From Octopus vulgaris (lineage: Eukaryota), in NCBI GenBank assembly GCA_951406725.2, contig OX597816.1, forward strand, positions 143,902,001 to 143,966,000: 64,000 bases of DNA, in the 5' to 3' direction. Below are positions 3,466 to 59,347 of the stretch, piece by piece. Both the position numbers and the translations under genes were made by a program. The notes below the pieces were generated by a model that saw only the letters and a list, made by a program, of their open reading frames with translations, had not been told where the DNA came from and did no database searches. How positions within the stretch are numbered: the first letter of the stretch is position 1; the number at the start of each line of letters is the position of its first letter.

Positions 3466-3470
3466 ACTTC

Positions 3471-5199: not shown

Positions 5200-5200
<1 letters not shown>
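5041..5200 (+). mobile_element. tRNA-derived SINE, family C (degenerate)
   Basis: Similar to 43861-44160 and 61960-62371. Confidence 0.6.
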
Positions 5201-5247
<47 letters not shown>

Positions 5248-9034: not shown

Positions 9035-10958
9035 CTGTGACCCGACTTTTCGTCCGATGTTACTTTGTTCAACGTCACTTTGTCCACATCTTTTCGTCCG
9101 ACGTATTTTTGTCCGATGATTTTTTTGTCCAACGACATTTTGTCCGATTTTAGATAAACTCTTTAGAAAACAAGGTGAACATGAAAATCAAATAATCATT
9201 GAGAATTTTATTGATAGGCTTCAAGTAAAATACTGTGGGAAAACGTATTTAAAAAAAGTCCTTTTTAAAAAGTAATGATACAACTATTGATTTATTATGA
9301 TCACTTAAAATTGATGCAAATTATATGCCATACACTTCAAAAAAAATATTCAGTGAACAATCTTTTGAGGCGTTCTGTTATTCTTCGATATCGTGTACAT
9401 GAATTTGACGGATCTCCTCGAAAAACTTGAGTCATTTTACCTTGAACCTTCAGAGTTTTGATTAATTTCCAAATATTCAAATGTGCTCCACCTGCCAAAC
9501 GCTTTATCGCCGAGTGAAACCCATCCGCAGAATTATTTATTCTGATTAACATTCCATAATCATACAACTTTCGGGAATGTAGATGGTTCTCTCCTTCGTC
9601 TAGCACTACGTCCTCTCACAATGCCTTACAAAGTCAATCGAAATAAGCGATGAATTCAGCAGGTATTTATTCGTCGTCTATTTATTCTTCATAGACCTCT
9701 TTGACATCTTCGACGAGTAGAAAGGCTAATACTGAAAAACATTGAATTCTAAGACAGAATTCAGGATCTTTATTGTATTTTACTTTGAGGCCTAAATCTG
9801 TAATTTTTCAAAATACTGATTGGCTCAAATGAAACAAACATGACACAATAGATGAACTAGGGAATGATGAATTAAATGTCTTATGAACTGCAACTTCGAA
9901 ATCTGCCATGAGATCAAGCGGATATGCATTAGGTTGCATAATTTTCAATTGCTCGAAAAATAATTCATATATCTGCTTTGTTTTATTCGGCAGTAATGCA
10001 AAGACCCATGGAAAACTGCTACCTTTAACTTGTACATGAATGCTAAACAGTTGAGATCACTGTTCTGACGCAATTTTGAACGTTCCATTACATGCCCAAT
10101 GGCGATATGATGCTATATCCTGCAGAGCACTTTCTGATGCAAATACTTGTATGCGTTGTTGATCCGCGATACCCGAATCGTATCTCAGAAACTGCCTGCC
10201 ATTATCAAGTTTACAATATTCACCAGGTATTTCAAAATCAGTTCTAGCCCCTGGATTAGCGAGAAATCCAGAATTTTTTTGTCGGCACCTTTGAACAATC
10301 CTGGAAAGTACAGGTAAACGAGGAAGTTGTGAGCAAGTATTTTCTGTTAGCTGCGTAAACATAGCCGTTATTATGCTACGCGAACTTGCTGCTAAGTTTT
10401 CTACCGCTTCATGCTTTATTTCTGCAACTGTTTTTCTAGCATTTAACGAATCTACTTCAGCTGGATGAAGGTACTCACTAGAAAGATAAATAATTTTCGG
10501 TTCATTGTTTTCCGTTATGATGTGAATTAGCACTGAGCATAGCCTTCTTTTCTCACATCTCCAGGATTTTTTTCCTAGTTTTGCATTGCTTGAATGAAAG
10601 TCGTAATTGTAATTTCCTCAACTACTTTTCTTTTGTTTTCGGCCGACACTATGAACTTTGTCATTTCGGGATGAGTAAATCAAAAATGTGTACACTCAAT
10701 TTGCAGCACTCTCTATACACAGCTCCGTACTTAAGAGAGAGAAGGAAAAAGAGGAAGTAAAACTGTTAAGAGAGAAGGAAAAAGAACGATAATAACAATC
10801 CTAGAATGAGGTTCGTTATAGTTCTGTGAATATATCATTAGAGATATTTCACCTTGTTTTCTAAAGAGTTTATTTAAAATTGGACAAAAATCGTTGGACA
10901 AAAAAAAAATCATCTGGCAAAAAGACGAAGTAACATCGGACGAAAAGACATAGCACCC
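9035..10958 (-). mobile_element. Mutator-like (MULE) DNA transposon with degenerate transposase, inserted in a SINE
   Basis: TIRs built from TTTTCGTCCGA-type subrepeats (9035-9150 / 10876-10958); ORF pieces with FLRYDSG..RIQVFAS..WACNGTFK and RINNSADGFH; AAATTT on both flanks and the SINE resumes after it. Confidence 0.85.
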
Positions 10959-11384: not shown

Positions 11385-11899
11385 ATTATATGGAAAATGC
11401 GAGCATGAAAAGTAATATTCTTAAGATTATAAATCTGAAAAAGTACAGGACAAGTTATTACACCTGTAAAAGTATAGGACAAGCTATTAGTTCTAGTAAA
11501 GAATAAGAAACTTTTTACTTAAAATATTGCAGCAAAGAATGCCAGTTCTTATAATTTATCACTCTTAACAGTTCTCATATTCTAAATTTATTGTACAAAG
11601 CTGTTCAGCTAATTTGTAAGTTTGTCTAATTAGTCACTTATTACTGTATTTAAGGTAGTAAATTAGCCAAATTCTACTTAAATAAGTATAGTGTTATTTG
11701 TAAAATATAATAAAATAAGTCTTAATATTCAAATTGTAATTTTAGCTGCAATATTTTAAGTAAAAAGTTTCTTAATCTTTACTTTACTAGAAGTAATAGC
11801 TTGTCCTATACTTTTACAGGTGTAATAACTTGTCCTGTACTTTTCCAAGTTTATAATCTTAAGAATATTACTTTTCAGACTCGCGTTTTTCCATGTAAT
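11385..11899. mobile_element. AT-rich MITE with ~150-bp TIRs
   Basis: ATTATATGGAAAATGCGAG...AATATTGCAGC mirrored by GCTGCAATATT...CTCGCGTTTTTCCATGTAAT. Confidence 0.8.
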
Positions 11900-13039: not shown

Positions 13040-15133
13040 AACAAATAGATGAATTTAAAAATTTTACATAAATATGAATAGTTCGAATGATAACATATGC
13101 AAGACAACAATACAGAATGGGGTGGGGAGGCGGGATATGCTCGGACCCCACGACCCGTCTCACCACTGATGCTTTGGGTTCTTCCTGCGTTGTATTCATG
13201 TGGTTCCATCCATTCGTGCGACATTCTTCCATCGATCTTGGAACATTTTTGCGGACGGGCATTTTTTCTCTAACCCTATTTTCCTTCTTATGCACCCACT
13301 GAAATTCACCAAGCCAGGGCCAGAGATAAAAATGCCTGTTATTAACCCTTTCATTCGCGTCTTCCAAATCGCCTCTCTCGCAATTGCTACTACGATGAGA
13401 AAGCAATTCTTACCGTCTTTCGATAGGAAATCCGGTGGGTCAGTTTTTACTATTGACTCAGTCGATAGCTGTACTCTTCCTGTACTTGACAAATGTTGTT
13501 CGGCATAAACCCACATATCGGACACCTCAATACACTCGGCGGGGGATGGCCTATGACTGTGGGGAAATATGATTTTAGTATTTCAAGGTTTATATTGTCT
13601 ATTTGTATTATCATAATTCCTTCAGGAAGTTTTGTATAATGTTCTATGAAGATTTCTGATGTAGGAATATTTTAAATTCTAGATGTAAATTGTTCGTTCG
13701 TGGCATTTATTGACACTAATAGTAATTTGTTTTGCCATATTTTTTTCCGGGACTGGAGGGGAGGGATGATTTTCTTGGGCTGGTCGAGGGGATGTACGAG
13801 GGGAGGGATATCGGGACTGGAGGATGGGGATTAGAGAGGTGAAATATCAGGGCTGGGTGGGAGGGAGGAGAGGTTATCAGGGTTGAAAGGAGGGGATATT
13901 GGTGGGCTTTTTTGGGAGGGATAGTGGCGAGGAGGGGTAGTTTGAGTTTCGTGTGTGTCTGTTGAGAGAGCTTTTTTCTTGTTCGATCTGGAAGTTGAGG
14001 GGGTGGGATTTGGATTCTTCTTTTTGGTTAATTTCTTCCTTTTTACTGTAGACCACCCGTCTTCACTCCCAGCTGGTTGAGTGTTTTCATTGCAGGGAGC
14101 CTGCTGGTCGGCCTTCTGTGTCTCTGTATCTTCTGCATCATTTTTTGGGCCGTCTCTACCTTACGAGTAGGATTGTTTGCTCGAATGTGGCCTTTCTCTC
14201 CATATTCGAAGCACCGGGGTCTTCTTCCCTCCACCATTACTGGTAAGGTGCTTTTTTCTCCGAGGTGTATGTTCTCTACGATCATTTCCAGGGTCTGAGG
14301 CGCCGCTTGGATAATGACCTCGAGGCCTTGCCCCTTCCAGTTCTGCTGGTGTATTTTTGAGGCCTCTAATATCGTTATTTCTTCTATCCCTATTAGTAAG
14401 GCTGGGAGTAGCCATGATACGTTTATTTCTGGCGGGATCTCGTCCATCGTGATTTTTGATATGCGTCTACCAATTGTATTGATATGCAATACAATGTCCG
14501 TAGTTTTCAAAGGTTGTACTGAGTATGTTTTTGCTTTGTCTTCACTTTTGAAATACACTACTACCGTGGCAAAGCGTTTGCCTCTGGTTAGGTATTCTAT
14601 GTCCTGCCAGATCGGCTGTAGGCATTTTCTATAGCTTTTGGTGCTTTGTCTAGTTTCTTTTCCTTTACAACAAGAGTTTTAAATACGACTATTTTTTTTG
14701 CGGTTTCTTCGATAATTTCACTCGGGAGGGTGGCTTTTACGTCGTATCTCTCCTTTGCAAACATGTTTTGGTGCTGCATTAGTACATTTTTGTCAATACA
14801 TAGTTTTTCTTTTTTCACTCCAGCCGCAGCTGCAAAATTAAACTTTTTTGCCGGTTCGACAAGTTTTTCTGCCATCGGCATACTTTATATTTTACAGTTC
14901 TTTTCACAGTTTTCGTCTACAGAGGAAGTATTCATTTTTAACAAAATAAATTGTGGAGAAACACCACAAAAAAATTAATAATTCCCACCCCCCTCACAGA
15001 GGGGGATAAAAGTTCACTCCGTCTGCCGCACGCAGAACGCTATTAAACACAACAATAAAAGAATTCAGCAACAACAATTTCAACACTAACCTTGAAGCAA
15101 AGAATACACCACACAATTAATCACACGTAACAA
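13040..15133 (-). mobile_element. Internally deleted L1/Tx1-like LINE (5'UTR, broken ORF1, last ~110 codons of ORF2, 3'UTR)
   Basis: ORFs 14597-14881 and 14043-14558 resemble ORF1 at 30355 (VEGRRPRCF..GEKGHIRA); 13196-13525 resembles the C-terminus of ORF2 at 31677. Confidence 0.85.
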
Positions 15134-20135: not shown

Positions 20136-20369
20136 GAAGAAATAAAACTTGTCAATAAGACAGTTTAACAGAATATGATGGATATGTATAGTGATGAACT
20201 GAACGCTATTAAGCTTTAAAAAAAATGTTAGAGGATATAACGTCAAAGGTAGCCTATAGAAAGAGAAGGTGTAAAGGAGGTGTTACGCCCTTTTTACTTG
20301 CGTTATTTGTTGCTACCCTGGTAACTGTTTATCTATTTTTCCGTGTTAATTGTAAGCAAAGGGAAAATC

Positions 20370-21475
20370 ATTTACGGCATCTCCTGCTCTCTCTCTGCCC
20401 TTCTCTATACATCAGGCAAACGGGACGCTGTTTTACTGACCGGTTTGCGGAACACCTCCAAGACATCCGACTCGGCAATGACACCCCGGTCTTGCGCCAT
20501 TTCCGCTCTACCCGTCACTCTTTGCAACACTTGTCCGTGTTCGGATTGTCCTTGCACAGGGGCCATACAGACTCCTTTTTGCGCCGTGAACAGAGATTAA
20601 TCTTCTCTCTTCGCTCCTTTGCGCCACATGGGCTCAACTCTCCTTCCCTCTTCATTTAACCTCCTCCCCTCGCCTCTCTCCCCCTCACACCTACTTCCTC
20701 CCACCCAGCTCCTCTCTTGCTCCGACTTCTACTTCTCTTCACTCCTACTCTTCTTCTCTCGTCTCTTCACTACTACCCACCTTCTCCTTCCCCCTTAATC
20801 GTCACCCCTCCCTCGTAAGCCCACCCTTACACATTCCACCCCACCTTCCTTATCCTTCCCATCCCACCCCGCCCCAACTCGTACACCCACTCCCATATAC
20901 CCATTTGTACTCTCACCCTCCGCCTAACCACATACCCCACCTCTCCCCCACCCCAGCCTAACCCATACCCTCTTGCTTTCTCCACTCTCGCCCCCATCTT
21001 CCAACACCTCACACCACACACCACTACACCTTACACCACCATACCACACAACACATCACATCACAACACACCACCACGCACACATCAGTACTGACCACTT
21101 CCTAGACCCACATTTTCACATCTACACATACACACACGCACACGTCAAGACCCCCAGCCCTCTTCCACACGTACATACAAGCTCTCTTATAACACGCACT
21201 CGCACCTTCGTTTTCGGATCATTCCTTCTTTATTACCTCCCCTTCTCCCTAGCTCTCTTGTGTGACCCTTCTGTCCGGCATTCACCATGATAGATCACTT
21301 GCCACTACACATTCTTTATTTTCTCTCCTTGTTTTTTACTGTGTTCCTTTCTGTGGAAGAGCGTAGGCTCGAAACGTTAAAGACTTTTTCACTTCCCGAG
21401 CGTTATACTAATACATCTGTTTGTTGTCTACACCACCTGACTTCGTCTTTTGTTTTTTTTGTGAATTCTCCCTAC
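20370..21475 (+). mobile_element. 5'-truncated PLE (GIY-YIG C-terminus plus pLTR)
   Basis: LYIRQTGRCFTDRFAEHLQDI...HF...REQRLIFSL...PHGLN; close relative of 23090-23370 in opposite orientation. Confidence 0.85.
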
Positions 21476-21530: not shown

Positions 21531-21914
21531 TATGAATAAATGAAAGAATGGAGTCGAACGACGATTTTAACAAAATTCCTTTACTCCCGACACATCTTTC
21601 GAAGGTTGCTTATTCCCTAATTCCGAAGGAATAAAGGATGAATTATGCCGCCATCTCATCAGGAAAGACAAGGAGATTATGTCAGCACCATGAAGAGCAA
21701 AAACTTTTAGATGACATGATCATGTGGGCAGTCATCTAAAAGTTTTTGCTCTTCATGGTGCTGACATAAGTTCCTTGTCTTTCCTGATGAGATGGCGGCA
21801 TAATGCACCCTTTATTCCTTCGGAATTAGGAATATGCAGCCTTCAAAACATGTGTCGAGAGTAAAGGAATTTTGTTAAAATCGTCGTTCGACGCCATTCT
21901 TTCATTTATTCATA
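21531..21914. mobile_element. Palindromic element (~185-bp arms) with a hammerhead motif on each strand
   Basis: Arms 21531-21715 / 21731-21914; CTGATGA at 21784-21790 (+) and 21656-21662 (-). Confidence 0.8.
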
Positions 21915-22072
21915 GTTAAAAAAACACACAAAATTTACACACGAGAGCACGGGATCCCTGCCCTTGGCATATAGCTTCAACCGTGTTTTCTGACGTGAAT
22001 TTGCTACCCAGGTATCGGTTAACCGAATTATCCATACTAGGATAATTCATTCACCTTCTTAAATATATATAT

Positions 22073-22456
22073 ATATAACGGGAAGCTTTATGAAAATAGA
22101 CAAAAGACGAAGGCAGGTGGAAAACAAACGAACAATTGTATTAGTATGGCGCTCAGGAAATATAAATAAAACAAGTCTTTAACGTTTCGAGCCTACGCTC
22201 TTCAACAGAAAGATACACAGAGAGAAAAAAAAACACAGAAAGAAGGAGAAAAAAATGCGTGCAGTAGCTAACGAATCAACATGGCGATCTGATTTCGGCC
22301 AGAGGTCAAAGATCAAACATGAGACGCGAGAGCGAAATAAGGGGAGATAATAGGGTTGATAATAGGGTTGATAATAGGGTTGAAGGACCAGCTAATAGTG
22401 CGTAGGAGGGGTCTGGAGTGTGTATGTATAGGGTTGGTGTATGTATTAGTATGTAT

Positions 22457-22497
<41 letters not shown>

Positions 22498-22800
22498 AGA
22501 GAGTATTAGTGCGTAGGATTGGTCTGGACGTGCGTATGTATGGGGTTGGTGTATGTATTAGTATGTATTAGTATGTATTAGTACGTATTAGTATGTATAA
22601 GTGTGTGTGTGTGTGTATGAGAGAGTATAAGTGCGTATGAGGGGTCTGGACGTGTGTATGTATAGGGTTGGTGTATGTATTAGTATGTATTAGTATGTAT
22701 TAGTACGTATTAGTATGTATTAGTTGGTGTATGTATTAGTATGGCACATCATATATGGTGTGATGTGTAAAGTCGTGTGGTGTAGTGAGGAGAAGAGGGG
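22073..22800 (-). repeat. PLE 3' pseudo-LTR
   Basis: Near-identical to 26543-27250 apart from microsatellite length and a few substitutions. Confidence 0.9.
22177..22213 (-). ncRNA. Minimal variant hammerhead motif in pLTR (copies at ~26647-26683 minus and ~21347-21383 plus)
   Basis: tcttt-CTGTTGA-a-gagc gtag gctc-GAAA-c-GTT-aaaga; palindromic ACGT helix III. Confidence 0.55.
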
Positions 22801-23084
22801 GAGGGGAGAAGAGGGGAGAGAGAAGGGGAGGGGAAGAAGAGGGGGAGGAGAGGAGAGGAGGGGAGAAGGAATGGGAGGAGGGGGAGGAAGGAGGAAAGAG
22901 GGAGAGGGGGAGAGAGAAAGGGAGAGAGAAAGGGAGAGAGGGAGTGAGGGAGCAGAGGGAAGGGGAAGAGGGAAGGAGGGAGGGAGAAAGAGGGAAGAAG
23001 GGAAGGGGAGTAGGGGTGAAAGGATGAAGGACTGAAGAAGTAGGGGTCGGGGGGAAAGGATAGGTGAGGAGGGGGAGAGGGGGT

Positions 23085-25924
23085 TAGATGAGGAGGGGGG
23101 AGAGTTGAGACCAAATGGCGTATAAGAGCGAAGAGAGAAGATTAATTCCTGTTCACGGCGCAAACGGGAATCCGGATGGCCTCTGTGTAAGGACAAACCG
23201 AACACAGATAGGTGTTGCAAGGAGTGACCGGTGGAGCGGAAATGGCGTGAGACCGGTGTGTCGTTCGCAAGGTGGATGTCACGAAGGTGTTCCGCGAACC
23301 GGTCAGCCAAGCGGCGTCCCGTTTGTCCGATGTACAAGGAATTGCAGAGAGAGCAAGAGATGCAATAGATAATATTCTGGAGGTGCAGGTGAAGGAGTGG
23401 ATGATGGGATAGGGTCGATGGTGGGTGCTAGTGAGGCGGGTGGTGTTGGAGAGGTAAGGGCAAGTGCGGCAACGTGGGCGGGAGCAGGGGAACGAGCCGG
23501 GTTGGGAGGTAGGGTCAGGGAAGGAGCTATGGACCAAAAGGTCTCGAAGGTTGTGGGCTCGTTTGAAAGAGGGGAGGGGTCGGTTAGGGAAGAGGTGTGA
23601 AGTGGACGGGTCGGACTGGAGATGACGGAAAGCTCGAAGAATGGTGCGTTGGAGACGTAGGGTCGTGGGGTGGTAAGTGAGGGGAAAAGGGAGGCGGGAG
23701 ACTACAGGGCGGGTTCGGGGAGAGAGAGCAGATACACGGTCCACGGACCGTGCTCTGGCAAGGGCGGTGTGGATAGTGGTGAGGGGGTATCCACGTAGGG
23801 TGAAGTGGTGAGCCATACGTTGAGACTGAGTCTCAAAGTCATGGTCGTCACTACAGAGCCTACGTAGACGGAGGAATTGGGAATAGGGGATGGAAAGCTT
23901 GGTGTGTTCTGGGTGGGAGGAAGAGAAGTTGAGGTATGAGTGTGAGTCTGTGTGTTTGTAGTGAATGGAGGTGGTAAGAGTGGAGTGAAGAATGCTAACC
24001 GAAATGTCGAGGAAGGAGACAGAGGTGTTGGAGATAGTGGAAGTGAAGTGGAGGGCTGGATGGAAAGATTGGACGAAAGAGAGGAAGGAATCTAGATGTT
24101 CGCGGGAGAGTGAGGTGGCACCGATAATGTCGTCAATGTAACGACCATATAGTTCAGGAGTGGGACCAGTGAAATTAGAGAATATTTGGGCCTCAACATA
24201 GCCAACGAACAGGTTCGCATAGTTGGGGCCCATTCGCGTTCCCATGGCCACTCCCGAGACCTGATGGTAGAACTCGCCCGCGAACGAGAAGCAGTTCAGA
24301 GTAAGGACAAGTTCGGCCAGACGAATGAGTGTGGAGGTGTCAGGTACAGGGTTAGAGCGGAGGTCAAGAAAGTGTCGAAGGGCCTGCAGTCCTTCGTGGT
24401 GAGGGATAACAGTATAGAGGCTTTGGATGTCCATAGTAAAAAGGATTTTGGAGGAGCCGGGAGGAAAGGAGAAAGAGTTGAAAAGCCGGAGAGCATGGTT
24501 GGTATCGTGGATGTGGGAGGGAAGAGATGCCACTAGGGAGGCAAGGACACGGTCGAGGTATTTAGAGATGAGCTCCGTGGGGCAGTTACAGGCGGAGACG
24601 ATGGGGCGGCCAGGGTTGTTGGGTTTGTGGATTTTGGGGAGGAAGTAAATGGTGGGGGTACGTGGGGTTCGCACAATTAGGTTGGATGCGGTGCGGGGGA
24701 GACGGGAGGACGAGATGAGGTCGTGGACAGTAGAGGATACCGTCTGTTGGTAGCTACGTGTGGGGTTAGAGGGCAGAGGCGAATAGAAGGAGGTGTCATT
24801 GAGTTGGCGGAAAGACTCGGCCCTATAGAGGTCCGCGCGCCACACCACTACAGCTCCACCCTTGTCAGCCGGTTTGATGATAATGTCAGCGCGCCGTTGG
24901 AGGGAACGAAGAGCCAAGAGCTCAGCCGGGGAGATGTTGAGGCGGCGTTGGCGCCTGGAGCAGTTGAACCGCTCCAATGCACGCTGACAAGCGCCCGCGA
25001 AAAGATCCACTGCTAGGATCTGGCCAGGGGCAGGCGTCCACGGGGATGGTCGGCGGCCCAGGCCAGTGAAGCAGTCCTCTTCGTTGGGTGTGGGTGGCGA
25101 GTCGTGGTAATGCGTACCCAACCGGACACGGCGTACAAAGCTGTGGACATCAACTCGCGTCTGGAATTCCTTACAGGATGGAGTGAGGGGGATGAAACGC
25201 AGACCCCTACCAATGACGGAGCGTTCAGCCGCAGAGAGGGGAAGATCGGGGGGAATGGTAACAACAGACGGAAGTGGAGAAGGGGTGGGTGGAATAGAAG
25301 TAGGAGGGGTGGTAGGTCTCGTGGAGGTCTGAGGGGGAGGGATTGGGGAGGTGTGTGGGGGTGGTTGGGCGGGGCAGTAGGGTTAGGTGTAGGTGGATGG
25401 AGCCTATCGGGAGGGGAGAAGGGTGGTGGAGGAGTTTGGGTAGTGGCGTCGGGTAGGGTGGAATGGAAGAGTGATTGGAGTTTACGAAGTTTGGTATCAG
25501 AAAGAAATTGATGGAAGAGTTGATTCAAATGGATAATGAAGCGTAGCGTGTTTGGAGCATAGAGAGGCGGCAGAGAGGAGAAGAAGGTGGTGAAAGCAGG
25601 AGGAAGAAGGCGGTTGATGGCATGTAGTTTGGAGAGATTGGAGCGAATGGTGGCCCGCATAAGGCGGTAAGATGTGGTGCGGAGTATGGGTAAGATGGAA
25701 GAATCCGAGTGGAGAGCAGGGTGGAAGTGGAGGCGGAAACCTTTAGGGATGAGTCGGTGATGTAGGCAGCGGCTTAGGAAAGAGACATGGCTAGAGAAGC
25801 GGGTTTTTTTAAAAAGAAGTAGAGAGAGATTAACGGACGGCTGAAGGCAATATACAGGAAGAGAACGGAGATGATCCTTCAAACGGTGATGGAGGGTGAG
25901 GAGGTAGGACCTAGGATCCGGCAT
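23085..25924 (-). CDS. PLE polyprotein (N-terminal domain, reverse transcriptase, CxxxxCxxC linker, GIY-YIG endonuclease) split by two frameshifts
   Basis: ATG at 25924 (MPDPRSY...HVSFLSRC...IPKG); KPADKGGAVV, LPKIHK, GRPIVS, GVAMG, RYIDD in ORF 23142-25121; YIGQTGR...RFAEH in ORF 22720-23337; frameshifts near 25300-25450 and ~23375; 3' end approximate. Confidence 0.9.
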
Positions 25925-26542
25925 GATGGGATAGCGGAAAAAAAACGTTCGAAAAAACAAAAAAAACAAAAAACAAAAATTATCGTATGAAAAAAATAGA
26001 AAAAAAGGATAGCGAAAAAAAGGGGAAAAAACAAACGTTCAAAAAAAACAAAAAAATAATAATCGTATGAAAAAACTAGATAAGTAAGCGATAGGGGCAG
26101 AAAAGACGGGGAAACGGAAAAGGGAAAGAAAGAAGGGAAGCAGAGAGAGGGGGAGGCAAAAAAAGGGGGTGCAGGCAGAGGAAACGGAGTATGGACATCC
26201 AGAGAGGGAAGAAAGACGGAAAGGAGAACAAAAATGCAGGAAAATGTGGAAAGCATGAAATGAATGTAAAAAAAAGTGGTAATATAAGAGAAAATAAAAA
26301 TACAACAAACGGGACAGTTTATGCGAACAAGTTCAAGGTTGAAAGTTCAAGGTGAGAAATGTGTAGACGTCGTGGTATATTTTTTAAGGATTTCACATCA
26401 ATGCAAAGTCACTTTGATCCGCGAAAGAGAGGTGCAGCCAATGGTAAGTATCCAAGAGGTAAAGAAAATCCAAGGTAGAGGTAAGTGTTGATAGTGGTAT
26501 TGGTAGAATATAGGATGAAAGTGAGACCACGTGAGCGCATAA

Positions 26543-27371
26543 TATATAACGGGAAGCTTTATGAAAATAGACAAAAGACGAAGGCAGGTGGAAAACAAAC
26601 GAACAATTGTATTAGTATGGCGCTCAGGAAATATAAATAAAACAAGTCTTTAACGTTTCGAGCCTACGCTCTTCAACAGAAAGATACACAGAGAGAAAAA
26701 AACACAGAAAGAAGGAGAGAAAAAAATGCGTGCAGTAGCTAACGAATCAACATGGCGATCTGATTTCGGCCAGAGGTCAAAGATCAAACATGAGACGCGA
26801 GAGCGAAATAAGGGGAGATAATAGGGTTGATAATAGGGTTGAAGGACCAGCTAATAGTGCGTAGGAGGGGTCTGGACGTGTGTATGTATAGGGTTGGTGT
26901 ATGTATTAGTATGTATAAGGGTGTGTGTGTGTGTGTGTGTGTGTGTATGAGAGAGTATTAGTGCGTAGGATTGGTCTGGACGTGCGTATGTATGGGGTTG
27001 GTGTATGTATCAGTATGTATTAGTATGTATTAGTACGTATTAGTATGTATAAGTGTATGTGTGTGTGTATGAGAGAGTATAAGTGCGTATGAGGGGTCTG
27101 GACGTGTGTATGTATAGGGTTGGTGTATGTATTAGTATGTATTAGTATGTATTAGTACGTATTAGTATGTATTAGTTGGTGTATGTATTAGTATGGCACA
27201 TCATATATGGTGTGATGTGTAAAGTCGTGTGGTGTAGTGAGGAGAAGAGGGGAGAGGAGAAGAGGGGGGGAAGAGAAGGGGAGGGGAAGAAGAGGGGGGG
27301 AGAGAAGAGGAGGGGGAGAGAGAGGAGGGGGAGAAGGAAGGGGAGGAGTTGGTGTATGTATTAGTATGGCA

Positions 27372-28393: not shown

Positions 28394-28638
28394 CTATCTA
28401 TAATACTGTAAATTTAACGTTCCGTATCTCCGTTCTGTTGATCCTATTTTAAGTAAGACGATTATCATTTCGGTCAATTCTATGTGTTTCTGACAGATGT
28501 CTTGCTAAAGTTTCTGGCTTTGGATCCTGGTATGTATTTATTTAGTTAGTAATTATTTATTTGTGTATAAATCTAGGTTCGTATATGTGTGTCTATGTAT
28601 GTATGTATGCATATATATACGTAAGTATAAATAAATAC

Positions 28639-28677
<39 letters not shown>

Positions 28678-28682
28678 GTAAA

Positions 28683-29018
28683 GGGGGTAAAGACCCCCTT
28701 CGGTCATGAATGACCATGGGATTGCACCTAGAAAGTTACCCTCCTAGACACAAGTCTGGGCAAGGTTGTTAATGGAATACCAGCAGTCGCCCATGCATAC
28801 CAGCCTCCCCTCTCCACGCCACCAGTGTTATCCAAGGGAAAGACAAAGGTCGATACAGCTTGGCACCAGTGACGTCCAACTCATTTCTACAGCTGAGTGA
28901 ACTGGAGCAACGTGAAATAAAGTGCCTTGCTCAAGAACACAACACGCAGCCCGGTCGGGATTCGAGCCACAACCTCACGATCGTAAGCTCGACGCTCTAA
29001 CCACTGAGCCATGCGTCT
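28683..29018 (-). mobile_element. tRNA-derived SINE, family B
   Basis: GACGCATGGCTCAGTGGTTAGAGCG head and TGTGTTCTTGAGCAAGGCACTTTATTTCACG core. Confidence 0.8.
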
Positions 29019-29025
29019 TTAACAA

Positions 29026-29067
<42 letters not shown>

Positions 29068-29068
<1 letters not shown>

Positions 29069-29900
29069 TAGCATTAAAGACCCGTCGTTGCCGGGTCATA
29101 GTGCTAGTGCATGTATATATGTGTATATATATATATATGTGTACATATTACATGTACATCTATATATATACATCTACACATAAAATGCAAAATACAAAGT
29201 TATATCTTGATATCGCCAGTGATAGCAATACTCAAAATATATAACAGATTGGAATTGTTAGCTCTTCTTCTTTCTCTACATTGTATACTTTATAGACAAT
29301 AGTCTTTTCTTTAATTTAATTTTTTATTATCCATCTGGACTATTCCATTTCTGCACGCTAATTTTATTTTTAATTTATTCCCATTCATGTGAAACCACTT
29401 ATTCAAGTTCAAATCAGTGATACAATTTTATACCAATTGCTATTTTTACTTTTGTTATGTTACGATTATATTATACTTTAGTTTGATTTTAATTATTACT
29501 TACTACATATAATTCAATTGTTATTATTACTTTTATTGTTAAAGTGAAAGCATGACATAAAATAGAGAAATATTTTTGTTTCACTTTTAACACGTAATAC
29601 TGAAATAGTGGAGAAGATATGATATTGCTATGGGCTCGCTCTAGGCAAGAAGTCGAACATTTTTTTGCCCATGAAACTACATAGACCCTTAGTAAGGCAT
29701 GTGTAAAATTTGAATGAAATTGGTTGTGTAGTTCTCAAGTTTTAGGGAATCGTAGTGGAGAAGATATGATATTGCTGTGGGCTCGCCCCAGGCAAAAAGT
29801 TAAAATTTTTTGCCGATGACACTCCCCGGACCCTAAGTAAGGCATGTGTAAAATTTGAATGAAATTGGTTGTGTAGTTCTCAAGTTTTAGGAAAACACAC
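29068..29900 (-). mobile_element. Non-autonomous Helitron-like element, 5' end lost at the LINE junction
   Basis: Hairpin GACCCGGCAACGACGGGTC plus CTAG at the minus-strand end; internal ~140-bp tandem duplication 29606-29890. Confidence 0.65.
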
Positions 29901-30138
29901 AGTGCAACCAAAAGTATCAGTGGGGAGGCGGGGCTCGTGGGGTCCGAGCTGAACCCGCACCCACTCCATCTGTAATGTCTTCCGGTCTATTCCATCATTC
30001 GATTTTGTGTGTATTCTTGTAATTTCATGATATTTTTAAATCCGATTTTGTGTAAAAACCATCCGTATGTCTGACCCCAAATCAGATTGTTTTGTCCCCT
30101 CTATGTTCGCCCCTTGTGGGTAGTAATAAAACAACCTG
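29901..30138 (+). repeat. 238-bp direct repeat identical to the LINE 3'UTR
   Basis: Identical by eye to 35084-35321. Confidence 0.95.
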
Positions 30139-30354
30139 TCTGAAATCAATTTTTTGCGTGTATAGTAAGTTATTATATTGTGTATATTTTCTCCATTGTG
30201 ATCTACTGTGTGTCTAGCTGTCTTTCTGTGTTGTTGTACAACTATTGAAGTCGGCCTTCGTGCGAGGGCTTCGTGTTGGTGTTCCCCCCTCCGTGGGGGA
30301 AAAACTATCATTATCTTGGTTGTGCCAAGGGCTTGCTAAAGCCAGTTATCGGAG

Positions 30355-31365
30355 ATGGAATCCCCCATCTCTTATTCTCCTGTGACAAGTGATGCAGGAT
30401 CACCGGCGGTGTCGCCAAAGAAAAAGAGGCGGGGTCGCCAAAGGAAAAAAGATATTCCAGCACCAGCGAGAAAATTTTCGGAAGTAGCTGGGAAGAAAAT
30501 TAAAAAAATTAATGTGGAAAACCTGGGAAAACATGCGGACTGTGTGTCAAAAGAGGGCACGGAAGTAACCGTGGCTTCAAACGCCCAAAAACAGGAGGAA
30601 ATTTCAAATAGGAGAATAATCTATAAGACCTTCAGTATAACAAGCAGATCAATACAAAAAATAGAGGAGAAAAAAATCGAAAATTGCTTAAAGCCGATAA
30701 TGGATAAAATTACATATATCAATCGAGGGAAGAAATACGGCACAGTGGAGGTGAGATTCACATCAGAGGAGGTAGCGAAGAAGCTATCCATGGAACCCAT
30801 AAAAGCGGAGGATATTGTTCTCCTACCCCTGTATAAAGGCAAGAGAACTTCCAAGATCACAATGAACAACATTCCGCCAGAAGCGGATGCCGAAGTTCTG
30901 GTGGCAGCAGTTATGGTAGGCCTGGAGGAAAAAATAAACATCCTCCAGGCCACCGTAGAAGAAGAATTCTGGAAAGGGCAAAAGATAATAATAGCCATCC
31001 AAGCAGAAATACAAACCCTGGAAGAGATCCCAGAGACTCTAAAGATAAGCGAAGATGAAAGAGTCACAGTCTTCGTAGAGGGCAGAAAGCCGAGGTGCTT
31101 CGGCTGCGGTAAGAAAGGGCATGTAAGGGCAGAATGCCAGCCCCAACCCAAACCGCAGGAAGCAGCTCAGCCAAGTGGAAAAGCAGAAGCCGTGTCATCA
31201 GAAACAGCGCTGGTCGGCCCAGGAGGGACGACTGAAGGTGTGGAGGTGACAGAGGCAGCGGAACCAACGGAGGAGGAAAAAAAGAGCGAGGAAACGAAAA
31301 AGGAGGAGGGGTGGTCAAAAATCACTAGAAAAAAAGAAAAACTGAAACCACCCCTCCCAAAGTAA
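30355..31365 (+). CDS. LINE ORF1 nucleic-acid-binding protein (CCHC knuckle)
   Basis: 336 aa, basic N-terminus, CFGCGKKGHVRAEC. Confidence 0.85.
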   Translation: MESPISYSPVTSDAGSPAVSPKKKRRGRQRKKDIPAPARKFSEVAGKKIKKINVENLGKHADCVSKEGTEVTVASNAQKQEEISNRRIIYKTFSITSRSIQKIEEKKIENCLKPIMDKITYINRGKKYGTVEVRFTSEEVAKKLSMEPIKAEDIVLLPLYKGKRTSKITMNNIPPEADAEVLVAAVMVGLEEKINILQATVEEEFWKGQKIIIAIQAEIQTLEEIPETLKISEDERVTVFVEGRKPRCFGCGKKGHVRAECQPQPKPQEAAQPSGKAEAVSSETALVGPGGTTEGVEVTEAAEPTEEEKKSEETKKEEGWSKITRKKEKLKPPLPK

Positions 31366-31388
31366 ACCAAAAAAAAAAAAGGGAGTCA

Positions 31389-31667
31389 TTGAACTCATTT
31401 ATGGCCGTTAAGGCCACGAACAATAGACTCGGAAATGTGTTGGCAGCGATGGCCAAAGTAGAAAAAATAGGGAGGAAAAACGACTATGTTTTGTACAGAA
31501 TAGGCCGGAAGGATTACGGACGGATAAAGTCCGAATTTTTCCATGACGTAGGCCCGCTCAGAATGGATATAACATCTCCATATATATTCGAGGGCCTGCG
31601 TCAGACTCCCCCACGAGGCCCAGAAAAAGAGAAGGAAGAAGAAGAAAAAACCGAACCACTGATATAA
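31389..31667 (+). CDS. Probable frameshifted C-terminal part of ORF1
   Basis: This frame is open back to 31329, overlapping the end of ORF1 at an A7 run; it stops 9 nt before the ORF2 ATG. Confidence 0.5.
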   Translation: MNSFMAVKATNNRLGNVLAAMAKVEKIGRKNDYVLYRIGRKDYGRIKSEFFHDVGPLRMDITSPYIFEGLRQTPPRGPEKEKEEEEKTEPLI

Positions 31668-31676
31668 AGGTAAGTA

Positions 31677-34600
31677 ATGGATTACATTTATGTTGGTTGT
31701 TTGAATGTGCGCGGCCTGGGAGCAGGCTGGAAGCAAGGTCGCTTCCTGCATGATATCAGGTCGCGTAATTTAGATGTTATTGTTGCTACAGAAACCCGGT
31801 TAGAGGGGCCAAGAGGTCTACTCCCGCTGTTTGACGGCTACGAGAGTTTTTTCTCTCCTGGCAGTCCTACAGGCGGGAGTGGGGTGTTGGTCCTATTAAA
31901 AAGAAACCGGGTTTCTGAGAAAAAGTTAATTTTTGCAGATCCAGAAGGTAGGCTGGTCGTCATGGATTTGACGTTCAGTAATGGTAAAGTTATCAGACTG
32001 GTTGCAATTTACGCACCCAACCATACAGGGCAAAGTGATTATTTTCGTGAACTAGAAAACTTTCTTGGTACTTCGCATTCATTAGTGGTGCTAGGAGACT
32101 TTAACACAATTTGCAAAGCGGATGTAGATTGTGTTGGCTCGCGTCCAGATAGAAAAGGCAACAGTGGCTTCATGGAACTGCTAAGCCGCTTTGAGCTAGC
32201 AGATCCTTATAGGCTGGAATTTCCGAACGCTCCATTGTGGACATGGTCAAACAGCGACGGATCTTCCAGGTCATATTTAGATAGAATACTAATTAGAAAA
32301 GTAGACAGTAAAATAGCTAAGTGTCCACAGTTTTACCCGATCAGCTACAGTGATCATAAAATGGTCACTTGTAAGCTTGACATAGATAAGGTTAAAAATA
32401 GAGGATCCGGTTACTGGAAACTTAATACGTCCCTTTTGGCGATTAAGGAGTACAAAGACCGGATTAGGAATATAATTCAGAGGGCACTATCTGGTACCAT
32501 CATTAATAACAAATGGTGGTACGCCCTCAAACGAGCCATCAAGTTTGAGTCTATTAGATATAGCATAGGAGTAGTGGCTAGAGAGGCTAGAAGGGAAACT
32601 ACTCTAGTTAAGGAATTAGAGGAAGCCATGAAAACTGGCTCTGCGGCTCAGGTGGCGTCCAAGAGACTGGTGTTAAACCAGCACCTCGAGGCCAAACACA
32701 TGGGCTGCATTGTCAGGGCTAGAATCCGTCATATGGGATGTGAAGGAATCAACGCCGTGAGATGGGCCCGAGTGGTGGAAGCTCAGCATGGTAACGATGC
32801 CACGATTCGATCTTTGACGAACCAACAAGGTGAGTTGATAAACGAACCCGAGGAGATGTGTGAGGCCTTTCAGGAGCACTTCGCTCAGCTTTTCGGTGAG
32901 TGCGGCGGACTGGATAGGAGGAGGGCCTTTACGGACCTACTCGACGGTCTGCCGCGCTTATCGGGGCGAGATGCGGAGGGCTGTGAAGGGCCAATCACGC
33001 CTGAGGAGGTGGTTGAGGCAATGGCGGACTGCGGCGCGGGCAAGGCGCCGGGTTTGGATGGTCTACCCTATGAGTTATATAAGAGTATGCCAGACTTGTT
33101 CGGGCACCTACTGGCGGAGGTCTACGCGAACTGGCAGCAGAACGGGCTTATACCCAGATCTGTGCGCCGGGGAGTAGTGACTCTCGTCAGAAAGGACCCG
33201 AGCAAGGGGGAGTGCATTGATAATTTCAGGCCCATCACTCTGCTAAACACAGAGTTGAAGATTTTGGCCAAAGTGTTATCGAAAAGATTGGCGCGTGTCG
33301 CGGATGGTCTGATCGGAGGGGCACAGACATGTGCCGTTCCGGGCAGATCCATTCAGGATAATCTCCATCTAATGCGGTACACTATAGAGGGGTTTAATAG
33401 TGATTCTGGCAAGGGTGGGGCACTGGTCCATTTAGACCAATCTAAAGCTTTTGATAGGGTCGACCATCGTTACCTGGTATCTGCCCTGGCACAGTTCGGG
33501 CTGAGCCTTGGCTTCCTCAGGTGGATTATCCAAATTTATGATAACATCGACTCGGTAGTTCGGGTGAACGGCTTCTTGTCGAAGCCGTTCAAAATCAAAC
33601 GCTCGGTTCGTCAAGGGTGTCCGCTCTCCCCGCTTTTGTACGTGATGGCTCTTGAGCCATTACTGCGAAAACTGAGCGGCATCCCGAGACAGCCAGGTAA
33701 CGGAAAATCAGTGTCAGCGTACGCGGATGACATCACCATCATCGTAACCGAAATGGACCACCTATGTAAAGTAGGCAAGGCCATAGAGGTTTACGAGACG
33801 GTGACAGGAGCAAAAGTTAATCGCGAAAAGTCAGTCGGCTTGCAACTCGGCACCTGGAGAGGCAAGTCGATGCCTCCTGACAGCGTCGTGGGACGTTGGA
33901 CGGAGGGTCCGATTAAACTGCTAGGGGTCTGGTTCGGTCCAGACCTCCAAATAGAGAAGAATTGGGGCGAGGTAACGAGCAAGGTGGCTGCAGTAGCCAA
34001 GACCTGGTCTTGGCGGTGGCTATCCCTGAAAGGGAGGGCGGAGGTGGCCAATGTGTTTATCGCATCGGTTATCACCTACCGCCTTTCCGTCGTTCCTTGC
34101 CCTGATTCGTGGTTGATCAAGTTGGAAAGACAGCTCTTCTACTTCTTGTGGAAGGGCGGGAAACCACTTGTGAAACGCTCTACTTGCTGTCAACAACCGT
34201 TAAAGGGTGGGCTAGGGATGCCTTGGCTGATGATGCGCAGACATGCGCTGAGGTTAAGACATCTGTGGCTCTACCTGGATGGTGAACGGGTGTGGTCTTC
34301 GCTAGCAAAACTGATGTTTCCCAAGTTCACTAGTTTCGGTGGATGGGAAACCTGGCTGAATCGTAGATCGAAACTTGGTACTTGGTACACGGAGTGTCGC
34401 AAGGCTCTCCTGCTATTCCGTCGCTCGGGCAACGCCTGCGGTGGGGGTTCCACCACATTCTTCTATAGAGGGTTGGTAGAGGCGGAATGTGAAGATACCT
34501 TGGGGGAAACCCTAGGTCTCGACGATAATCAGCTGGCCAGTCTGTTCCGACGTACGTTCAAGCCGAGGACACTGGACAACTTCCAGAAGTCTCTGGCATG

Positions 34601-35072
34601 GCAATGCTACAGAGGAGCTCTACCTGTTCGGGATAAACTCGCAAGGCACGGTGGCCAAGACAGTCCGATATGTCCAAGATGCGGGCGGGATAGGGAAACC
34701 GTCCCGCACGCTATTGTTCATTGTCCGGACGTGTCTGAGGTGTGGGTTTATGCCGAACAGCTGTTGTCAGGTACACGAAGAGTACAGCTGTCGACTGAGT
34801 CGATTACAAAAATTGACCCACCGGATTTCCTCGTGAATGAAGGTAAGTTTCGTTTTCTCGTTGTAGTAGCAATTGCGAAAGAAGTGATATGGAAGACGAG
34901 AATGAAAGGTTTACAGTCAGGCAAGTTCATCTCCGGCCCTGGTTTGATGAATTACTTCATCTTTCACCTGAAAAGGAAGATAGGGCTGGAGAGAATATGC
35001 CTGACTAGGAGAGTGTATGAAGAACGATGGAAGGATGTAGCACGAAAGTTGCGAATGAAAGTTACAACATAA
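31677..35072 (+). CDS. LINE ORF2: AP endonuclease, reverse transcriptase, C-terminal zinc knuckle
   Basis: 1131 aa uninterrupted; LNVRGL, IYAPN, GDFN, SYLDRI, SDH, WKLN, KAPGLDG, FRPITLLN, KAFDRV, QGCPLSP, YADD, CPRC...ETVPHAIVHC. Confidence 0.96.
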   Translation: MDYIYVGCLNVRGLGAGWKQGRFLHDIRSRNLDVIVATETRLEGPRGLLPLFDGYESFFSPGSPTGGSGVLVLLKRNRVSEKKLIFADPEGRLVVMDLTFSNGKVIRLVAIYAPNHTGQSDYFRELENFLGTSHSLVVLGDFNTICKADVDCVGSRPDRKGNSGFMELLSRFELADPYRLEFPNAPLWTWSNSDGSSRSYLDRILIRKVDSKIAKCPQFYPISYSDHKMVTCKLDIDKVKNRGSGYWKLNTSLLAIKEYKDRIRNIIQRALSGTIINNKWWYALKRAIKFESIRYSIGVVAREARRETTLVKELEEAMKTGSAAQVASKRLVLNQHLEAKHMGCIVRARIRHMGCEGINAVRWARVVEAQHGNDATIRSLTNQQGELINEPEEMCEAFQEHFAQLFGECGGLDRRRAFTDLLDGLPRLSGRDAEGCEGPITPEEVVEAMADCGAGKAPGLDGLPYELYKSMPDLFGHLLAEVYANWQQNGLIPRSVRRGVVTLVRKDPSKGECIDNFRPITLLNTELKILAKVLSKRLARVADGLIGGAQTCAVPGRSIQDNLHLMRYTIEGFNSDSGKGGALVHLDQSKAFDRVDHRYLVSALAQFGLSLGFLRWIIQIYDNIDSVVRVNGFLSKPFKIKRSVRQGCPLSPLLYVMALEPLLRKLSGIPRQPGNGKSVSAYADDITIIVTEMDHLCKVGKAIEVYETVTGAKVNREKSVGLQLGTWRGKSMPPDSVVGRWTEGPIKLLGVWFGPDLQIEKNWGEVTSKVAAVAKTWSWRWLSLKGRAEVANVFIASVITYRLSVVPCPDSWLIKLERQLFYFLWKGGKPLVKRSTCCQQPLKGGLGMPWLMMRRHALRLRHLWLYLDGERVWSSLAKLMFPKFTSFGGWETWLNRRSKLGTWYTECRKALLLFRRSGNACGGGSTTFFYRGLVEAECEDTLGETLGLDDNQLASLFRRTFKPRTLDNFQKSLAWQCYRGALPVRDKLARHGGQDSPICPRCGRDRETVPHAIVHCPDVSEVWVYAEQLLSGTRRVQLSTESITKIDPPDFLVNEGKFRFLVVVAIAKEVIWKTRMKGLQSGKFISGPGLMNYFIFHLKRKIGLERICLTRRVYEERWKDVARKLRMKVTT

Positions 35073-35083
35073 ATGTAATACCA

Positions 35084-35321
35084 AGTGCAACCAAAAGTAT
35101 CAGTGGGGAGGCGGGGCTCGTGGGGTCCGAGCTGAACCCGCACCCACTCCATCTGTAATGTCTTCCGGTCTATTCCATCATTCGATTTTGTGTGTATTCT
35201 TGTAATTTCATGATATTTTTAAATCCGATTTTGTGTAAAAACCATCCGTATGTCTGACCCCAAATCAGATTGTTTTGTCCCCTCTATGTTCGCCCCTTGT
35301 GGGTAGTAATAAAACAACCTG
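35084..35321 (+). repeat. LINE 3'UTR / right direct repeat
   Basis: Begins 12 nt after the ORF2 stop, ends AATAAAACAACCTG, no poly(A). Confidence 0.95.
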
Positions 35322-35613
35322 GAGGAAAGCACCTTCGAAAAGTGTCTTGGTGCGATTATGAAAGGTATCTAATCAGAGGCGGTAAATTCGCCACAATAGA
35401 AACAAGGTTCGAGTCAACGGAGCGTGCAAGGGAGTACTCGACTCGAACTTGCAAAGTGTAAATATTTTATTTTACTTTTATATCTGGGACGTAGGACGTC
35501 CCGGAAAAAAATTTAAAATGCCCCCCCCCCGAAGTAGAGGTAGGCTGGATTGTAGCCACACTTCTATACAAGAGGGAGGTCAAGATACAATTGATCGAAA
35601 TTACAAGAGACGG

Positions 35614-35802
35614 GCTAACAATTCCAGTCTGTTATATATTTTGAGTATTGTTATCACTAGCGATATCAAGATATAACTTTGTATTTTGTATTTTATGTGT
35701 AGATGTATATATATTGATGTACATGTAATATGTACACATATATATACACATATATACATGCACTAGCACTATGACCCGGCAACGACGGGTCTTTAATGCT
35801 AG
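35614..35802 (+). mobile_element. Helitron-like 3' end, inverted copy of 29068-29262
   Basis: Reverse complement of 29068-29262; hairpin plus CTAG|T. Confidence 0.75.
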
Positions 35803-35982
35803 TATATCTATATTAATAGTTATCGCCAAGCTAACATGGCAGTCCAGAAAAACAGGACGAATACTGCCGTTAATTAGCTCCAAGAGGCTATCGCTTCTAG
35901 CTAGCTATGTGACACATAAACCTGAGTCCATTATAACCTTCGAATAGGGGAGGTCAGCCGCTTCCCCTTGCCGGTCTGGCAT

Positions 35983-36023
35983 CCACAGACTAGTTTCATG
36001 GTATTTGTCCCTTATCAATGTAG
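35983..36023 (-). ncRNA. Degenerate type I hammerhead motif
   Basis: ctaca-TTGATAA-gggacaaataccat-GAAA-cta-GTC-tgtgg; palindromic ACTAGT helix III. Confidence 0.45.
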
Positions 36024-36387
36024 AGTAGCCGAATGAGGCAGGGCCATATATATATATATATATATATATATAACTGTCTATTAGTATGCCGATTAAAGCA
36101 CATTCACCATTTGGGTTACGATATAATTTCCACTAGATCTACGTTAGGAAATCCGTAGTGTTTGTTGAGTTTATAATTGATGAAGGAAATGGGAGATGGA
36201 TTTAGTATTTCGTTTCGACCCATCCTGCAGTTGTCCCATGGGGATACGATATTGTGCATTTTATGTTGCCTCAATCAGTGGAAGCTGTATCACTTCAGAT
36301 AACCTTCGATGACGTCATTGCCATAAGATGAGCTGAGATCTCTTCACGAAACTGCAAATAGCTTCTGGTATAGAATGCAATATAGTT

Positions 36388-36546
36388 CATTATTTACATT
36401 ATTTACATTTGACGGATATTTGTCAAAGTTCGAAATTTCCCCCAAGATACCTGATGAAGGCTCGAGGGTATATCAGCCGAAACGTAGTGTTAACAACAAC
36501 GAAGATCAGGATAAATATCCGTCAAATGTAAATAATGTAAATAATG
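36388..36546 (+). mobile_element. Short fold-back (~36-bp arms) with a hammerhead-like core in the loop
   Basis: Arms 36388-36424 / 36510-36546; CTGATGA-a-ggct...agcc-GAAA at 36451-36482. Confidence 0.6.
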
Positions 36547-38550: not shown

Positions 38551-39018
38551 ATGTTAAATAAAATGAGACAACAAAGCCAAGGCAGTGTGAAATTTCTAGG
38601 ACATTTTATAAAGGGAAAGGTAGTCTTGCAGCTGTTCCAGGGATACAAAAAATATCCCATCATCAGAGACGATATAAGAGAGTTAAATACAAGGAAGTAG
38701 TAGAGTTCAGTATAAGAAGTTATTTTGGAAAGGGGGAGATATAGGAAGTATAAAGGGAAATGTTAGAATAAAGATTAAAATATATGATGGATGTTAAACT
38801 TGCTTTTATTCTTATACTTCCCTTTATATTTCCTCCCTTTTCAAAATAGCTTCTCATATTGAACTTTACTATTCCATTGTATTTAACTCTCTAATGTTGT
38901 CTCTGATAATGGGACATCTTTTATATCCCTGAAACTGCTGTAAGTCTACCTTTTTCTTTATAGAATGTCCTAGAAATTTTACACTGCCTTGGCTTTGTTG
39001 TCTCATCTTATTTAACAT
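38551..39018. mobile_element. Palindromic element (~200-bp diverged arms) with a degenerate hammerhead on each strand
   Basis: Arms 38551-38752 / 38812-39018; cores at 38903-38942 (+) and ~38627-38666 (-). Confidence 0.75.
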
Positions 39019-41046: not shown

Positions 41047-41507
41047 CATATTGTCCATTAACCATATAATTTTTTCACAATACGCACGCTACTCGAAAAA
41101 AGGTCGACAGAAATTTCTAAAAAATTCCATTATTACCATATCGGACCGATTTCAGGGTTAGCTCATTACAGCCCTCCCTTCGTCAGTGATACATGTGGCA
41201 AAAGAAATACATGTTGGCCTCAGTTCAAATCGCACGTGTCTCGAATGGGCTGGAGTATTTCTATTTTGGATGTATTTGGGGTACTTAATTGTGCTCGTGA
41301 CTTAGTGTTTGCTTCTTCCATGGGTATGAGTAAGTATCTCATTTATTTCTTTTGCCACATGTATCACTGACGAAGGGAGGGCTATTATGAGCTAACCCTG
41401 AAATCGGTCCGATATGGTAATAATGGAATTTTTTAGAAATTTCTGTCGACCTTTTTTCGATTAGCGTGCGTATTGTGAAAAAAATAATATGGTTAATGGA
41501 CAATATG
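41047..41507. mobile_element. Palindromic element (~163-bp arms) with an intact hammerhead core on each strand
   Basis: Arms 41047-41209 / 41344-41507; tatca-CTGACGA-aggg...ccct-GAAA-tcg-GTC-cgata at 41362-41414 (+) and ~41139-41191 (-). Confidence 0.85.
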
Positions 41508-59121: not shown

Positions 59122-59347
59122 TATTTCTTTACTGCCCTCAAGGGGCTAAACATAGAGGGGACAAACAAGGGCAGACAGAGGGATTAAGTCGATTACATCG
59201 ACCCAGTGCAAAACTGGTACTTTATTTATCGACTCCGAGAGGATGAAAGGCAAAGTCGACCTCGGCGGAATTTGAACTCAGAACGTAACGGCAGACGAAA
59301 TACGGCTATGCATTTCGCCCGGTGTGCTAACGATTCTGCCAGCTCGC
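59122..59347 (-). mobile_element. tRNA-derived SINE, family A (near full length)
   Basis: Same consensus as 2196-2425. Confidence 0.85.

Follow-up and report, generated by a model that had tools for sequence, protein, structure and literature searches.

How does a long interspersed nuclear element (LINE) of the L1 group come to carry the same long direct repeat at its two ends? The question is raised by an element at positions 29901-35321 of a 64,000-nucleotide stretch of the Octopus vulgaris genome (assembly GCA_951406725.2, contig OX597816.1, positions 143,902,001 to 143,966,000 of the forward strand), which is the window of this work and to which all positions refer unless another sequence is named. 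An earlier description, made from the letters of the window and called here the sequence-only reading, had proposed an intact L1/Tx1-like element with ends like those of a long terminal repeat (LTR) element, whose family might renew a promoter in its 3' untranslated region (3'UTR) through a terminally redundant or circular RNA. The present analysis favours, with moderate confidence, another origin: the repeat would be a 5'-truncated second copy of the LINE, placed head-to-tail before a full-length copy and joined to it through the pentamer ACCTG.

Anatomy of the repeat and of its insertion site

The direct repeat is exact, since 29901-30138 equals 35084-35321 in 238 of 238 bp (blastn within the window, E 1e-121), as the sequence-only reading had stated. 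Each copy is composed of 233 bp of 3'UTR and 5 bp of host target, ACCTG. The upstream 3'UTR copy (29901-30133, plus strand, 233 bp), which may represent a 5'-truncated second unit, has its AATAAA at 30125-30130 and opens 11 nt past the position equivalent to the stop of open reading frame 2 (ORF2). It is joined to the full-length unit by the ACCTG spacer (30134-30138, plus strand), which is identical to the target 5-mer of the host and precedes the 5'UTR in an independent contig too. At the other end, the 3'UTR of the full-length unit (35073-35316, plus strand; repeated part 35084-35316; AATAAA at 35308-35313) has no poly(A) and is followed by the ACCTG of the host target (35317-35321, plus strand). 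Both repeat copies finish in AATAAAACAACCTG without an A-tail, and the common end base that had already been noticed is explained by the host-derived 5-mer. On the 5' side of the full-length unit, ACCTG is followed by TCTGAAATC.

The full-length unit begins with a 5'UTR of 216 bp (30139-30354, plus strand; GTAAGT at 30165). ORF2 (31677-35072, plus strand, 1131 residues) is open and encodes an apurinic/apyrimidinic-type endonuclease (APE), a reverse transcriptase (RT) and a zf-RVT domain, with PF03372, PF00078 and PF13966 above the Pfam cut-off; its best match in the PDB is human L1 ORF2p (E 1.5e-65, over residues 3-867). ORF1 as assembled (30355-31365, plus strand) has 336 residues and its stop at 31365, and the open frame that carries it on (31329-31667, plus strand) lies beyond a 1-nt slip in an A7 run. 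This region was compared with read contigs. The stretch, whole or in part, is present in 20 of 24 read runs (8 studies, three organism labels), and the contigs of four runs (X1, X3, X4 and X14) were aligned over 30095-35600, with the outer left junction lying outside; summed contig depth does not measure copy number and was given no such meaning. An extra A at 31328 is found in contigs of all four runs, in all the depth of X1 and X3, in 325 of 777 in X4 and in 530 of 2422 in X14. As it coincides with the opening of the next frame, ORF1 of the assembled copy is frameshifted, by either a real slip or a homopolymer error in the A7 run. The element can therefore be called intact for ORF2, which is open and has its domains, but not for ORF1. 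The latter has a weak CCHC knuckle (zf-CCHC at residues 247-261, E 0.052, below the Pfam cut-off) and is homologous to ORF1 of the array-forming relatives described below (E about 1e-11).

With an N-terminal APE, an RT, a C-terminal cysteine-rich zinc motif and no integrase found, the element is a non-LTR retrotransposon of the L1 group. Its clade is probably Tx1-like; apart from unnamed relatives, the quick tree includes one fungal protein (26% identity) with a TX1-like annotation. The description as LTR-like was not confirmed: the repeat termini are AG...TG, without TG...CA, and a Pfam domain search of the LINE ORFs found no integrase, protease or RNase H. A true LTR element was rejected because of the L1-like RT, the LTR-type domains not found, the wrong ends and the missing 4-6 bp duplication outside the repeats, where the outer flanks are CACAC on the left and GAGGA on the right. 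A splice acceptor at the start of the repeat (AG, 35084-35085) was also considered and was dropped because the pyrimidine tract is missing.

The LINE is enclosed by the two inverted arms, of 212 bp, that belong to a host repeat. The left arm (29057-29268, plus strand, 212 bp), which belongs to the host and not to the LINE, is the inverted partner of 35608-35813 with 93% identity (blastn), and the left host interior (29269-29900, plus strand) contains a 144-bp tandem duplication (29606-29894, 88%) and a short CA run at the junction. On the right, 35322-35813 (minus strand), including the arm 35608-35813, is part of a very abundant host repeat, and in X1 and X14 no other part of the stretch reaches its depth. 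Empty-host contigs, 26 in X1 and 28 in X14, align from 35317 on, and their differing upstream sequence ends in GATTTGAAC; the empty host site reads GATTTGAAC and then ACCTG-GAGG. Because ACCTG is already contained in these empty contigs it is host sequence, and since its frequency in the window is only 0.0006 per site, its presence at all the joints is not due to chance. ACCTG flanks the full-length unit (30139-35316) at either end, directly before the 5'UTR and directly after the 3'UTR, in the manner of a 5-bp target site duplication (TSD), where the sequence-only reading had seen none. The evidence for a possible target preference consists of ACCTG in three contexts at few loci, and the copies of a short interspersed nuclear element (SINE) in the window do not end at ACCTG. 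Besides, the left flank does not continue as the empty right-hand host would, and therefore host DNA has likely been lost between the two flanks. Rfam on 28500-36500 gave no match at the gathering score, only low-complexity miRNA hits, and thus no tRNA, small nuclear RNA (snRNA) or ribozyme target; on 6 array loci of relatives it gave no match.

Two side observations concern the site. In X3, a low-depth contig joins the 3' end of the LINE or of the SINE to the host arm at about 35622 via an AACAA microhomology, and it reflects either a deletion at the LINE locus or another insertion into a member of this host family. ATTTGAAC, presumably the reverse of a tRNA B-box-like motif, is found at the insertion point in the empty host sites of the window and of the relative array c17 (L130 reverse, 5180-5205); these are two cases only, and the other arrays are without it.

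Tandem arrays in relatives of the element

A protein search gave 32 matches among 7999 scored candidates, the best at 58%, 39% and 37% identity. In the genome_contigs collection ORF2 alone found no relative as a query, and a profile of the window ORF2 aligned with four of the protein matches found 45 loci, 40 of them on 16 contigs of one record. The ORF2 alignment found no relative in viral_contigs, and the tail motif had 0 matches in both collections. In a quick tree, the window ORF2, P0001-P0003 and the array relatives form a single clade of 8 rows with a Shimodaira-Hasegawa-like approximate likelihood ratio test (SH-aLRT) support of 100, the sister lineage having about 40% ORF2 identity with the window element. 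The record with these 16 contigs is titled as an Arenicella (bacterial) metagenome-assembled genome (G001, L070-L111); at least 16 of its contigs consist of animal-type repeat DNA with LINE arrays, and 82 ORF2 matches were counted.

At the loci of the sister lineage, units that hardly differ from each other (full units are 99.8-99.9% identical) follow head-to-tail in arrays, one every 6.4-6.8 kb. None of 53 3' ends has five or more A after AATAAA. The 12 nt that follow AATAAA have an identity of 0.91 within contigs as against 0.38 between them, and fall into 10 classes on the 16 contigs. The spacer of one array (a 16-mer) is found in the empty twin of a host duplication, directly beside the array, and another array has its spacer at both ends. 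A 5'-truncated unit follows 3 of the 48 visible junctions. The lack of poly(A), the short spacers and the tandems with truncated members are normal in this LINE lineage, in which long terminal repeats were not seen, and the tendency to form tandems that the sequence-only reading had suspected is well supported for the lineage by the head-to-tail arrays and the truncated members. The absence of poly(A) and the array-specific spacers of the sister arrays suggest that each locus may prime on its own flank.

Arrays of full units also bear on another origin of the window repeat, a full-length dimer formed first and later shortened by a deletion that reached from the host CA run up to where the 3'UTR of the first unit starts. 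Such a deletion would account in one step for the missing left host sequence, and the near-identity of full units in the relatives agrees with the dimer; it requires an extra event, though, the only possible microhomology at the left joint is AG (2 nt), and the left flank lies beyond the contig-covered stretch 30095-35600. We regard this history as improbable. At the outer edges of the arrays, the target duplication at the left is present in 2 of 5 array starts of the relatives and absent in the window, and a search for a 3'UTR piece in the 1000 bp upstream, whose positive control worked, found it at 0 of 5 sister-lineage array starts.

More distant relatives had enough flank at 14 of 74 loci. 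Repeats around ORF2 were seen in 4 of them, a number to be read with the tendency of short-read contigs to collapse such repeats; two of the four are a duplicated part of a U1 gene and a host tandem unit, and the others are L062 and L069. In L109, a distant L1/Tx1 relative has a full U1 snRNA gene on one side and, on the other, 163 bp that duplicate the 3' part of this gene and its flank with 99.4% identity (3036-3232 and 10008-10170 of L109). Another distant L1/Tx1 relative has U1 downstream (L014, 9202-9356).

Splice-donor-like motifs recur in the group. GGTAAGT is placed just 5' of the ORF2 start in the window (31670-31675) and, in 10 of 11 relative units, 13 nt ahead of the ORF2 ATG, although most of these units are closely akin; a second GGTAAGT lies 14 nt past the ORF2 stop in 8 of the 11. 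GTAAGT is located 35 nt past the upstream AATAAA in the window and 51-59 nt past it in 5 of the 11 relative units. When tail sequences were folded singly, no convincing common structure emerged.

Origin of the upstream copy

The partial-tandem anatomy seen by the sequence-only reading was confirmed, with a truncated copy upstream of a full-length one, and the best reading is a minimal tandem of the kind formed by R1 and SINEU-3. In R1 arrays the target duplication stands between the units, and the arrays are attributed to new copies that insert into the duplication bordering the 5' end of a resident one (PMC2718515). Within a Mariner element, SINEU-3 tandems have a TSD between their copies, and Tx1D is the target of Tx1L (PMC4494074). 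In R2Ol, SART1Bm and R1Bm, priming is improved when a read-through 3' end can pair with the target (PMC6530143, PMC7265360), and the R2 RT jumps end to end between templates (as cited in PMC2718515).

In the proposed mechanism, because AATAAA is the last feature of the element, the RNA would carry at its 3' end a few bases of the target duplication in place of an A-tail. This target-derived tag could prime reverse transcription by pairing with a matching target that has been nicked. A resident copy would offer such a target in the duplication at its 5' junction, and a second copy of the same young RNA might insert there; it would stop after 233 nt and join the CA run upstream, with the loss of some host sequence. 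Alternatively, the tandem could arise in one event, if the enzyme jumped from the 5' end of one RNA to the 3' end of the next. The data fit the second insertion and the template jump alike. Under both routes the repeat would not be a functional LTR: it would come about as tandems form, and its left edge would differ from locus to locus. The same anatomy would be produced by an insertion copied, with slightly more than one round, from a circular RNA or DNA intermediate, and DNA circles joining the 3' and 5' ends have been reported for the L1-clade LINE Zorro3 (PMC3510499). No data in this analysis point to circles, and the host 5-mer in the join is directly explained by tandem formation; this is the least probable of the origins considered here.

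Read contigs provide evidence on the junctions themselves. Record 9 of X14 (172 nt, depth 102), which comes from another species label, aligns to 30134-30274, including ACCTG, and has 32 unaligned letters upstream; it thus carries ACCTG and the 5'UTR without an aligned 3'UTR before them. Record 23 of X3 runs through the 3'UTR and ACCTG and then continues with 15 letters that do not match the host. Both repeat copies carry alleles that are in the minority among the aligned contigs (35134 G, 21% of depth in X1, and 35274 T, 3%), and therefore one young source is indicated.

The same contigs were used to weigh an assembly artefact, that is, a collapsed array or a mis-join through the identical 3'UTR. 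The repeat identity is perfect, the homopolymer slip in ORF1 suggests residual long-read error, neither junction of the locus is bridged among the contig rows listed (15 of 134 joints and 32 of about 25,970 pieces), and the best run contains only 0.71 of the sampled words. Against these points, ACCTG-TCTGAAATC and 3'UTR-ACCTG are each present in independent runs, a mis-join would still require a 3'UTR-to-5'UTR junction somewhere, and the window has no N. An artefact is thus held to be very improbable.

A less remote alternative, still an unlikely one, is a self-renewing pseudo-LTR. Transcription would start in the upstream 3'UTR copy, or read through from a donor array, and pass the first AATAAA; the RNA would be terminally redundant and the repeat would be inherited, as with Penelope elements and HeT-A. 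This would agree with repeats that are 100% identical and share minority alleles, with a repeat that starts almost exactly at the start of the 3'UTR, and with X3 record 23 if that contig is the junction in a second individual. The GTAAGT past the upstream AATAAA is a putative suppressor of the first poly(A) site; the silencing of a nearby upstream poly(A) site by a splice-donor motif has a retroviral precedent. On the other side stand X14 record 9 with its 5'UTR lacking an aligned 3'UTR, the array starts of the relatives without any 3'UTR piece, the host origin of ACCTG and, weakly, the absence of a junction-bridging piece or go-back joint among the rows listed. There is no positive support here for the claim that the family renews a 3'UTR promoter via a terminally redundant or circular RNA. 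In its most extended form, which we consider distinctly doubtful, an L1-type LINE family would have acquired a cycle similar to that of LTR elements. Its promoter would lie in the upstream 3'UTR copy, the splice-donor motif just downstream would silence the first poly(A) signal, and the RNA would be terminally redundant; with the short target-derived tag at the 3' end of this RNA each locus would return to its own insertion site, pseudo-LTR copies and arrays being self-renewing without poly(A).

Several observations weigh against the preferred tandem of a truncated and a full-length copy. The outer left edge has neither ACCTG nor GATTTGAAC, CACAC being found instead, so that a deletion must be assumed, and the start of the upstream copy, only 11 nt past the ORF2 stop position, does not look random for a truncation. 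X14 record 9 could be a diverged 3' tail, as its 32 upstream letters are only known to be unaligned, and X3 record 23 could be the very 3'UTR-to-5'UTR junction in question. The shared minority alleles would be expected from a single template no less than from two events that followed each other closely. The arrays belong to another animal, whose elements have about 40% protein identity with the window LINE and UTRs without similarity at DNA level. Among the arrays, a spacer of a third class ends two of them although their right flanks differ, and two left ends lack it; therefore not every spacer is a local TSD, and this one is at least partly carried by the element. Finally, no SINE copy of the window is followed by ACCTG. 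The repeat is nevertheless a real feature and most likely a tandem by-product, on this reading another case of the known habit of LINEs of stacking at their own target duplication.

Comparison with known systems and neighbouring elements

The closest parallels are found in several lineages. R1 of the Drosophila 28S rDNA is also an APE-type LINE with head-to-tail units separated by the target duplication (PMC2718515), and in the window the inter-unit spacer ACCTG equals the empty target. R1 belongs to a different clade and uses one conserved 14-bp rDNA target (PMC2718515), whereas the window LINE has a 5-bp spacer in an abundant host repeat and the sister lineage has array-specific spacers, with 10 classes on 16 contigs. 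In the Tx1 clade (Xenopus Tx1L in Tx1D and crocodilian SINEU-3 in Mariner-N4), an L1-related APE-RT element is likewise inserted in a non-autonomous repeat, and the TSD sandwiched in SINEU-3 tandems has been read as the result of sequential insertions (PMC4494074); the window LINE differs in lacking an outer left TSD, and its tree contains no named Tx1 reference.

The pseudo-LTR of Penelope is similar in that a 5'-truncated copy, mostly 3'UTR, lies upstream of a full-length copy (PMC2377424). Penelope combines a GIY-YIG nuclease with an RT that forms a separate class (PMC2377424), whereas the window LINE has an APE and an L1-type RT; moreover, the Penelope arrangement is frequent (about 30% of the D. 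virilis copies) and holds the promoter (PMC2377424), whereas that of the window LINE is seen here at one locus. HeT-A and TART are non-LTR elements with head-to-tail units, the 3' promoter of HeT-A driving the next copy and TART having direct repeats in both UTRs (PMC1636488). They are telomeric and jockey-related, and the TART repeat is subterminal and includes the start of ORF1 (PMC1636488), unlike the window LINE, which is interstitial.

A repeat annotation of Octopus vulgaris includes 13 recently active L1-Tx1 families (PMC13282606). In the open-access literature searched, neither a description of this LINE family nor one of an L1/Tx1 family with family-wide terminal repeats was found, and the available parts of PMC2861651 and PMC4758252 contain nothing decisive. 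For annotation, such a tandem pair is a warning, as it can pass for an LTR element. If the upstream repeat were family-wide and included a promoter, an L1-type element would have reached the solution of Penelope and HeT-A independently. That would also provide a young and testable system for the old proposal that tandem copies of non-LTR elements gave rise to LTRs.

The SINE partner proposed by the sequence-only reading has gained ground. A tRNA-like SINE copy (59122-59347, minus strand) has a tail at 59129-59165 that matches the 3' end of the LINE in 33 of 37 positions, and because the SINE tail is common to the last 37-45 nt of the LINE, a partnership with this LINE or with a relative is plausible. 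The SINE tandems at 2022-2420 and 3113-3469, in each of which a full copy precedes a shorter one, fit a tandem-prone enzyme and are no test of the LINE terminal repeat.

Other elements are found in the window. A Penelope-like element (22071-27338, minus strand) has an RT ORF at 23142-25382 with an upstream overlapping frame and direct repeats of 827 bp (22071-22892 and 26542-27338, 95%), a natural pseudo-LTR example near the LINE; a diverged 3' fragment of it is inverted at 20363-20700. Older, broken relatives of the LINE are located on the minus strand at 13083-13537 (64%), 14181-14639 (47%) and 62937-63966 (38-58% protein identity). An open frame at 10057-10617 (minus strand) has a weak FLYWCH zinc finger match (E 0.0068, below the cut-off) and is possibly a transposase remnant. 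Inverted repeats of foldback type, or similar to miniature inverted-repeat transposable elements, with arms of 100-184 bp that are 87-97% complementary, are present at 38551-39018, 41047-41507, 11394-11889 and 21616-21830.

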